Assembly (NCBI RefSeq): GCF_001677475.2
Contig: NZ_CP015229.1
From: Escherichia coli
GTDB lineage: Bacteria; Pseudomonadota; Gammaproteobacteria; Enterobacterales; Enterobacteriaceae
Length of the DNA: 64,000 bases
Strand: one strand, 5' to 3'
In this document: one piece after another, positions 57,788 through 58,264 of the stretch
Numbering within the stretch: the stretch's first letter is position 1
Layout of the letters: the number at the start of each line of letters is the position of its first letter
The notes under the pieces: model-generated
Told to the model about the DNA's origin: nothing
The model's input: the letters and a program-made list of their open reading frames with translations, nothing else
The model's database searches: none
Program-made: the position numbers and the translations under genes

Positions 57788-57859
57788 TATTATTTACTCA
57801 TGTTTTAACTGATTTAATATTTATATCGAATACTGATAATTATTCTGTTGGTTAGCTAT

Positions 57860-58198
57860 ATGAACAAAACGATTTTATTCTGCACGATTATTGCCTTAAC
57901 AGGATGTAAATCTTTGGATTACGTAAAATCCGGAAAACCTGTAATGGAAGGTAATTCATTAAAAAATATTGATGAATTGTCAGGCTGCATATCCAGACAA
58001 TGGGCTGGTAATGGAACACCTATAACATCCCTTCCTATTGAGAATGGGGTAAGCCTTTTAGTTCCACAGGCTATGGGTGGGTACGATGTTGTGCTTGATA
58101 TCAAAAAAGCAGGAAATGGCAGTAGTTTTACTCTTTATGAACGCGTACCAGCATTAACGCCAAAAATTTTTGCTGATAGTGTTAATGCATGTAAATAA
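57860..58198 (+). CDS. Putative lipoprotein (moron between I and J)
   Basis: Internal start of ORF 57848..58198; signal peptide with lipobox (IIALTGC); AT-rich upstream intergenic; followed by terminator. Confidence 0.5.
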   Translation: MNKTILFCTIIALTGCKSLDYVKSGKPVMEGNSLKNIDELSGCISRQWAGNGTPITSLPIENGVSLLVPQAMGGYDVVLDIKKAGNGSSFTLYERVPALTPKIFADSVNACK

Positions 58199-58221
58199 TA
58201 GTTAATCCTGCCGTAACTCAT

Positions 58222-58244
58222 GAGCCGCCTTTTGGGCGGCTTTG
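58222..58244 (+). terminator. Rho-independent terminator downstream of lipoprotein gene
   Basis: Seen in sequence: GAGCCGCCTTTTGGGCGGCTTTG. Confidence 0.4.
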
Positions 58245-58264
58245 TCGTTTATGGAGTGTGAGGA

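Follow-up and report, generated by a model that had tools for sequence, protein, structure and literature searches.

The 64,000-nucleotide (nt) stretch of Escherichia coli DNA examined here (contig NZ_CP015229.1; hereafter the window) is 100% identical to E. coli strain 08-00022 (NZ_CP013662.1), and our subject is a small gene for a predicted lipoprotein that a lambdoid prophage carries in its tail operon. The gene lies in the spacer between the tail tip gene I (57146..57787, + strand) and the tail tip and host-specificity gene J (58265..61519, + strand), which encodes 1084 amino acids (aa) with an atypical C-terminal third. Gene I matches the tail assembly protein family PHROG 32 (E 1.8e-83), is named 'tail assembly protein' in RefSeq, and over its final 47 codons is 98% identical to lambda I. 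The spacer itself (57788..58264) is 477 nt long, with a guanine plus cytosine (GC) content of 0.363, as against 0.569 in gene I and 0.594 in the first 2 kb of J. Its sole sizeable open reading frame (ORF) is the lipoprotein gene (57860..58198, + strand), which RefSeq lists as WP_001332187.1, 'hypothetical protein'. A scan of the spacer with Rfam gave only sub-threshold noise and no sign of a known RNA gene.

In lambda and in phage cdtI the space between I and J is just 60 nt and holds no gene, as a first-pass annotation of this DNA had stated for lambda. A three-way alignment places the extra DNA at 57789..58215 (+ strand; 427 nt, GC 0.344), where it stands in place of about 12 nt of the 60-nt spacer; homology is clean up to the stop codon of gene I and returns a few bases before a hairpin that precedes J. 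The earlier claim of an AT-rich insert of about 470 bp therefore holds for composition and needs correction for size. The contrast in composition recurs in other phage copies, in which the GC content is 0.37-0.42 compared with 0.44-0.55 for flanks that were complete enough to be measured. We thus have an extra gene between genes that are adjacent in relatives, with a base composition unlike that of its neighbours. Together with the terminator after the gene, its absence from close relatives and its deviant composition support the conclusion that it is a moron-type insertion in a lambda-like tail operon. Two pairs of short direct repeats lie around the insert, TTGGGCGG at 57777-57784 and 58232-58239, and ACTCATG at 57796-57802 and 58216-58222. 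Given that nine such repeat families occur within 511 nt, we consider these repeats to be probably due to chance.

Although lambda itself has none, genes between I and J are known from other lambdoid phages. The GenBank records of HK97 and HK022 annotate three moron sites, each with a terminator, between the tail chaperone (T) and the tape-measure protein (TMP), between K and I, and between I and J. The first of these is occupied by gp15, the second by gp20 or a decayed copy of it, and the third by gp22/gp23. The I-J gene is thus less unusual than the first-pass annotation implied, and the annotated slot adds to the grounds for its proposal that the gene is a moron.

The hairpin before J (58222..58251, + strand) resembles an intrinsic terminator, with a 9-bp stem (6 GC pairs) and an interrupted T-run, and ends 14 nt before the J ATG; the part from 58222 to 58242 folds at -16.1 kcal/mol (z -3.1). 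The gene had been credited with a terminator of its own. A terminator does follow it, but the gene-free I-J spacer of lambda (lambda 15449-15495, compared with 58212-58252 here) has a homologous hairpin, AAACCGCCTGCGGGCGGTTT, at an equal distance from J, and this one folds equally well (-16.5 kcal/mol, z -3.6). The hairpin is therefore not strictly the insert's own, and its lambda counterpart could either predate the insertion or be the remnant of a lost cassette. In every other phage copy examined, a hairpin and T-run stand between the gene and the Shine-Dalgarno sequence that serves the following tail gene, an arrangement that fits a transcript needing to stop in a repressed prophage. The terminators annotated just before H, I and J in HK97 resemble the lambda I-J hairpin, and hairpins before tail genes may mark, or be left from, moron cassettes.

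The 112-aa ORF is a real gene and not a chance reading frame, as indicated by its homologues, the constraint on its codons, a confident structural model and invariant cysteines. Homologues at 22-62% identity retain the full length, the lipobox cysteine and both C43 and C111. The ratio of nonsynonymous to synonymous substitution (dN/dS) is 0.08-0.35 in five pairs with an estimable dS, with dS near or at saturation in those pairs. An AlphaFold2 model has a mean predicted local distance difference test score of 83.7 and a predicted template modelling score of 0.76, with a beta-alpha-beta4-alpha arrangement and disorder confined to the signal peptide. An alternative TTG start at 57848, which would give 116 aa, is unsupported, since the homologues all begin M-[KNR]-K.

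As the first-pass annotation had read it, the sequence supports a lipoprotein precursor, predicted to be lipidated at Cys16. The N-terminus (MNKTILFCTIIALTGC...) carries a signal peptide that ends in the lipobox L13-T-G-C16 (57860..57907, + strand), in which MNK is followed by the hydrophobic core TILFCTIIA and then LTGC. This fits the lipobox pattern [LVI][ASTVI][GAS]C, the strict form of which is found in 40 of 48 family members, with the cysteine invariant in all 48. The mature protein would have 97 aa, a mass of about 10.3 kDa and an isoelectric point of about 7.9. In E. coli, the '+2 rule' of the Lol system sorts lipoproteins by the residue after the acylated cysteine. This residue is lysine here and is aspartate in 0 of the 48 family members, so sorting to the outer membrane is predicted. 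Two further cysteines are invariant in the 48 sequences, Cys43 in helix 1 (codon 57986..57988, + strand) and Cys111 in the C-terminal helix (codon 58190..58192, + strand), and they are probably joined by a disulfide. In fold, the model resembles Flpp3 (DUF3568), the N-domain of BamC, DUF302 and KA1, at 4-13% identity. Flpp3 is a virulence-associated lipoprotein. What these proteins have in common is a very common type of alpha+beta scaffold (TATA-binding-protein-like or helix-grip-like), and the likeness in fold transfers no function.

The protein aligns over its full length (residues 1-112) with positions 1-118 of the 118-position profile of PHROG 914 (E 7.3e-33), which was the only hit in the PHROG scan and carries no assigned function. 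A phmmer search found 59 representative clusters at E <= 1e-3, about nine of which are artefacts driven by repeats. These are proteins of 800-3700 aa (P0023, P0028, P0030 and others) that match query residues ~14-60 through 4-10 repeated stretches (in P0023, '...NYQWQRNGSDIGGATGNTYITT...'); after reading P0023, we judged that they are not relatives, and they were kept out of the alignments. Lipoprotein relatives in the AlphaFold Database come from enterobacteria, Pseudomonas, Bordetella, Pandoraea and Pasteurellaceae. Among cultured phages, Fraca and OS31 carry a member, as does phiAH14a, which was confirmed by profile comparison; phage PHB09 gave a weak tblastn match only (E 0.2). A scan of genome contigs gave no matches, nor did scans of viral contigs with three distant members. 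PHROG 914 is thus a widespread, fast-evolving and uncharacterised phage lipoprotein family of about 112 aa with three invariant cysteines.

Of 5426 complete E. coli genomes, 336 (~6%) carry the cassette at 95-100% identity, with 348 copies in total and up to three per genome, and ~1786 genomes have the flanks of the spacer. The carriers include extraintestinal pathogenic (ExPEC) and avian pathogenic (APEC) strains, such as S88 and APEC O1. Among the E. coli copies in IMG/VR, 25 of 27 are intact. Occasional decay is seen in frameshifted copies (L044, L045, P0002, P0018), and an insertion sequence, IS1, lies at the locus in E. coli c1-17. Outside phages, the chromosome of Shimwellia blattae has a homologue at 38% identity (7001-7339 of the stretch examined) between yidB and eco (ecotin) and near copCD/yebY, with no prophage around it and a host-like GC content of 0.62. 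A contig of a Rep3/ParA plasmid has a copy at 29% identity (P0036). The first-pass annotation had said that homology to an unrelated housekeeping lipoprotein would speak against its reading; no clear case was seen, and the one chromosomal homologue, that of Shimwellia blattae, likewise has no assigned function.

Members of the family occupy the same kinds of site as the morons annotated in HK97 and HK022. All 27 E. coli loci in IMG/VR have the gene between I and J. The slot between K and I, directly 5' of I, is used in Klebsiella and other enterics, Yersinia, Serratia phage OS31, Escherichia phage Fraca and nine Pseudomonas loci. The slot between the chaperone and the tape-measure gene is used in Enterobacter, Citrobacter and Salmonella, and also, on the opposite strand, by a single distant member, which belongs to an unrelated siphophage. 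Members in the K/I slot start out from a near-constant place, 38-62 nt upstream of I (in loci with both genes annotated or called), and this distance is kept even with 1-6 kb of other cargo between K and the gene. Fraca has three accessory genes in one tail region, namely cor downstream of J (11579-11812 of its stretch) and, in the K/I slot, the family member and an 89-aa gene of unknown function.

Pseudomonas phage phiAH14a departs from this pattern. Its member (hhalign probability 99.2%) is in the early-left region, on the strand of the repressor gene and downstream of it, which we read as a typical place for an exclusion gene. Paired with it there is a further intact copy of the gpI gene, with 79% identity to the I gene of the tail operon; the pair is at record ~13998-14984 (5962-6948 of the stretch examined). 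The annotated p33 lacks the N-terminal part of the full lipoprotein ORF. The slot before I in the phiAH14a tail operon holds a different lipoprotein of 140 aa (p83), which shares only the first ~31 residues.

The evolution of the lipoprotein is loosely tied to that of the tail. We correlated pairwise distance matrices across 16 loci for the lipoprotein, L, K, I and the N-terminal part of J. The four tail proteins correlate with one another at r 0.83-0.94, as against 0.41-0.53 for the lipoprotein with each of them (I 0.53, K 0.51, L 0.47, J 0.41). The mean distance is 0.61 for the lipoprotein versus 0.44-0.48 for the tail proteins. Such divergence, faster than and uncoupled from that of L, K, I and J, is as expected for accessory or conflict genes. 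The lipoprotein tracks I no better than K or L, which leaves co-evolution with gpI unsupported. In these distances it behaves like a cassette that evolves fast and can be exchanged, and unlike a protein that co-evolves with gpI. A second comparison concerns J. In E. coli loci, a lipoprotein with 99-100% aa identity is found beside at least four types of J C-terminus (J of 1084, 1132, 1137 and 1159 aa), whose last 300 aa are 48-68% identical to one another or to lambda. With one allele upstream of at least four J ends, the lipoprotein is not matched to the receptor-binding domain of the phage that carries it.

With some hesitation, and as a possibility that falls short of even odds, we favour an explanation in which the prophage expresses the gene and the product, an envelope protein, keeps out other phages at a step that does not depend on the receptor used by the phage that carries it. 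In this scenario, a cassette made of an AT-rich leader, the prolipoprotein gene and a terminator would have been acquired horizontally by a lambda-like tail operon, and the PHROG 914 family would move among the chaperone/tape-measure, K/I and I/J slots of siphophage tail operons. The product would be exported, lipidated at Cys16 and sorted to the outer membrane, where the mature protein may form a compact alpha+beta domain on the periplasmic side, probably pinned by the disulfide between Cys43 and Cys111. An exported lipoprotein cannot join tail assembly in the cytoplasm, and so would have to act in the envelope of the lysogen or of the infected cell. The lysogen would be protected, as might the cell in late lytic growth, through anti-terminated read-through of the tail operon. 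Superinfecting phages would be excluded at the envelope, and candidate steps that are independent of the receptor specificity of J include outer-membrane penetration, DNA ejection after adsorption, or the use of a fixed heterologous receptor. The exclusion function, the expression from the prophage, the lipidation and the outer-membrane location are all inferred. Four observations lead us to favour exclusion: the design of the cassette (its foreign composition, its terminator and its place in canonical moron slots), its rapid evolution, the position of the phiAH14a copy downstream of the repressor, and the precedent of HK97 gp15.

That precedent is among the systems most like this one. HK97 gp15, a YebO-like protein as is its homologue HK022 gp20, is expressed from the prophage and mediates superinfection exclusion, blocking genome injection without masking the receptor (PMC3594210), and it is the one tail-operon moron with a proven function. 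Like the gene described here, the genes for HK97 gp15 and HK022 gp20 encode small envelope proteins, lie between conserved tail genes and have a terminator before the next gene. They also use the same slots as the lipoprotein, gp15 at T/TMP and gp20 at K/I. HK022 gp20 (5749-5973 of its stretch) is a homologue of gp15, and the K-I gap of HK97 (6514-6834 of its stretch) holds a gp20/gp15 copy interrupted by stop codons; homologues in different slots indicate that a known exclusion moron moves between the sites that the lipoprotein uses. The likeness does not extend to sequence, and tblastn against the window found no match to gp15 or gp20. Moreover, gp15 is a 62-aa inner-membrane protein with a single transmembrane helix, whereas the product here is predicted to be an outer-membrane lipoprotein of 97 aa in its mature form, with an alpha+beta fold. 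Exclusion has been demonstrated for gp15, and for the PHROG 914 lipoprotein we would only suggest it.

A lipoprotein with a comparable mechanism is Ltp, which acts after adsorption on the incoming tail (on the tape measure) rather than on a receptor, and whose gene lies in the lysogeny module. It is a lipoprotein of the Streptococcus phage TP-J34 prophage that takes part in superinfection exclusion (PMC3952083). Ltp thus resembles the mechanism that we favour, but it belongs to a Gram-positive host and is unrelated in sequence and fold.

Several results weigh against exclusion by a prophage-expressed lipoprotein. The first concern expression. In the candidate promoter zone (57793..57846, + strand) there are weak sigma-70 matches only, the best -10 element being GATAAT at 57835-57840. 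No + strand sigma-70 promoter with at least 9 of 12 matches and 16-18 nt spacing occurs in the 72-nt leader, and a lenient scan of this AT-rich leader gave 8/12 matches and one of 9/12 with a 15-nt spacer. The Shine-Dalgarno sequence is weak in this allele, though good in other alleles. With no convincing promoter and a Shine-Dalgarno sequence of low strength, it is unproven that the prophage expresses the gene. Where the gene lies between K and I, as few as 32 nt can separate it from K, which leaves little space for a promoter of the gene's own. The distribution is a further difficulty. Double carriers of the cassette number between 6 and 12, as against ~11 predicted by independent acquisition, a crude estimate that is uncorrected for phylogeny; 348 copies in 336 genomes is close to chance, and so there is no indication that a carrier keeps out further phages of its kind. 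The chromosomal copy in Shimwellia and the plasmid copy indicate that the family is not strictly bound to phages.

Database searches also gave nothing that points to exclusion. Pfam had no match even at E <= 10, either for the protein or for any of the 48 family members, and the only NCBIfam match was to VirB7 (E 0.08), covering the signal peptide alone. PADLOC returned 0 families at E <= 1, and a sequence search of the PDB gave no usable relative. Literature searches on the accession, on PHROG 914 and on lipoprotein morons of tail operons turned up no paper about the family; a paper on a small RNA of the NC101 prophage concerns another locus. The data are also compatible with other roles in the envelope, for example in serum resistance or stress tolerance.

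These other roles form the alternative that survives best, one that we regard as unlikely but worth keeping in view. The lipoprotein would be a lysogenic-conversion factor that improves host fitness through serum or complement resistance, tolerance of envelope stress, or adhesion. The bor gene of lambda lies near the lysis genes and not in the tail operon. Bor provides the precedent, as a lipoprotein encoded by a lambda moron (cited in PMC3594210), and Bor/Iss is similar to our case in being an outer-membrane lipoprotein of about 100 aa, encoded by a moron in a lambdoid phage. The occurrence of the gene in S88 and APEC O1, the homologues on a chromosome and a plasmid, and the resemblance in fold to Francisella Flpp3 all point the same way. 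Against this, there is no similarity to Bor/Iss, as neither the protein nor 48 relatives matched the Pfam family Lambda_Bor. In addition, the phage copies are confined to tail-operon slots in very different hosts, including Antarctic Pseudomonas, mine-biofilm Serratia and Klebsiella, and confinement to these slots across such diverse hosts argues against a virulence role that is specific to one host niche.

We think it improbable that the gene serves a late-phase function, in which it would be expressed chiefly together with the tail genes and not primarily from the prophage, and the lipoprotein would alter the outer membrane as infection ends and so tune lysis, or stop progeny from ejecting their DNA into infected cells or debris. 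Such a role would agree with the orientation of the gene, which shares the strand of the late operon in all contexts but one, and with the K/I contexts, in which a gap of 32-45 nt to K and a good Shine-Dalgarno sequence are found with no obvious promoter. The position directly 5' of I is kept across Gammaproteobacteria, as might also be expected. However, every phage context examined has a strong terminator directly after the gene, which is difficult to account for if the gene is purely late; moreover, one copy is on the opposite strand and another is in an early region, and lambda and many of its relatives make normal virions and bursts without the gene.

Also improbable is a matched receptor mask, in which the lipoprotein would bind and inactivate the outer-membrane receptor used by its own J, as Cor does for FhuA phages and Llp for T5, and so both shut out superinfecting phages and prevent the loss of progeny by adsorption to debris. 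The first-pass annotation had drawn an analogy with these two proteins, and its general part, superinfection exclusion, stands as the most plausible role; the receptor-matched form is weakened by the near-identical lipoproteins beside at least four J ends and by the presence of cor together with a family member in Fraca. The appeal of a mask comes from finding a small outer-membrane lipoprotein beside the host-specificity gene, as with Llp by pb5 and Cor near J, and from the position in the late operon, which means that the product would also be made during lytic growth. Cor (of phi80, N15, HK022 and mEp167) is similarly a small prophage lipoprotein encoded in a lambdoid tail region, but has 78 aa, is encoded downstream of J and is tied to phages that use FhuA. 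T5 Llp is likewise a small lipoprotein encoded beside a receptor-binding or tip gene, but llp is transcribed divergently from an early promoter beside oad/pb5, and the protein here, unlike Llp with pb5, does not vary in step with the receptor-binding end of J.

Membership in either family can be rejected. The first-pass annotation had seen no direct sequence match to Cor or Llp, and hhalign agrees, with probabilities of 18% against HK022 Cor and 19% against T5 Llp and nothing beyond the signal peptides aligned in either case; the window has no Cor homologue. In most lineages, moreover, the gene adjoins I or the tape-measure gene and not J.

A more specific version of exclusion, to which we assign a low probability, is that the lipoprotein intercepts the incoming tail-tip plug gpI after adsorption, from the inner face of the outer membrane. 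On the basis of electron cryomicroscopy, gpI was proposed to be the plug of the lambda tail tip, which exits the tip on LamB binding, and its two hydrophobic helices were proposed to insert into the outer membrane of the host (PMC11101478). The idea comes from the persistence of the gene directly 5' of I, its indifference to the end of J, and the pairing of the lipoprotein with a second gpI in phiAH14a. We keep it low because there is no specific co-divergence with gpI and because K/I and I/J are general moron slots.

That the gene is a neutral or selfish passenger, without function for phage or host, is very hard to credit: decay does occur (the frameshifted copies and IS1 in one strain), but dN/dS is 0.08-0.35 where estimable, the lipobox cysteine and two more are invariant in 48 sequences, all but two of the 27 E. 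coli copies in IMG/VR are intact, and the family is retained across distant phage lineages.

Envelope proteins encoded by morons in lambdoid tail operons are already known, and the PHROG 914 lipoprotein is an uncharacterised one among them. Its relatives are common in the tail operons of Klebsiella, Enterobacter, Salmonella, Yersinia, Serratia and Pseudomonas phages. If it is a true exclusion factor, it would represent a widespread barrier that is independent of the receptor, with relevance to host range in phage therapy and to competition among prophages, and it would be a second worked example, after HK97 gp15, of how the moron slots of tail operons are used. The cassette is small and simple to test, though it would not surprise a specialist.

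The surroundings of the gene offer some minor observations. The prophage extends over ~20600-65700, with int at ~22585-23703, and lies between potC and potB, so that it splits the potABCD operon. Its immunity and early genes (racR, ydaT, dicB, hokD) are Rac-like. The last ~330 aa of J have a GC content that falls to 0.47-0.50 and look coiled-coil-like by eye. Compared with HK022 J, this C-terminal end shows only 34% identity over a stretch of 202 aa; a 51% match to lambda J spans just 95 of the last 300 aa, and PGAP labels the J gene 'incomplete, missing C-terminus'. Downstream of J are two small ORFs of unknown function, at 61529-61900 (phrog_2427) and 61879-62688 (phrog_4062), followed by a tail-fibre gene. 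The region at 60400-62688 may be a different receptor-binding module.

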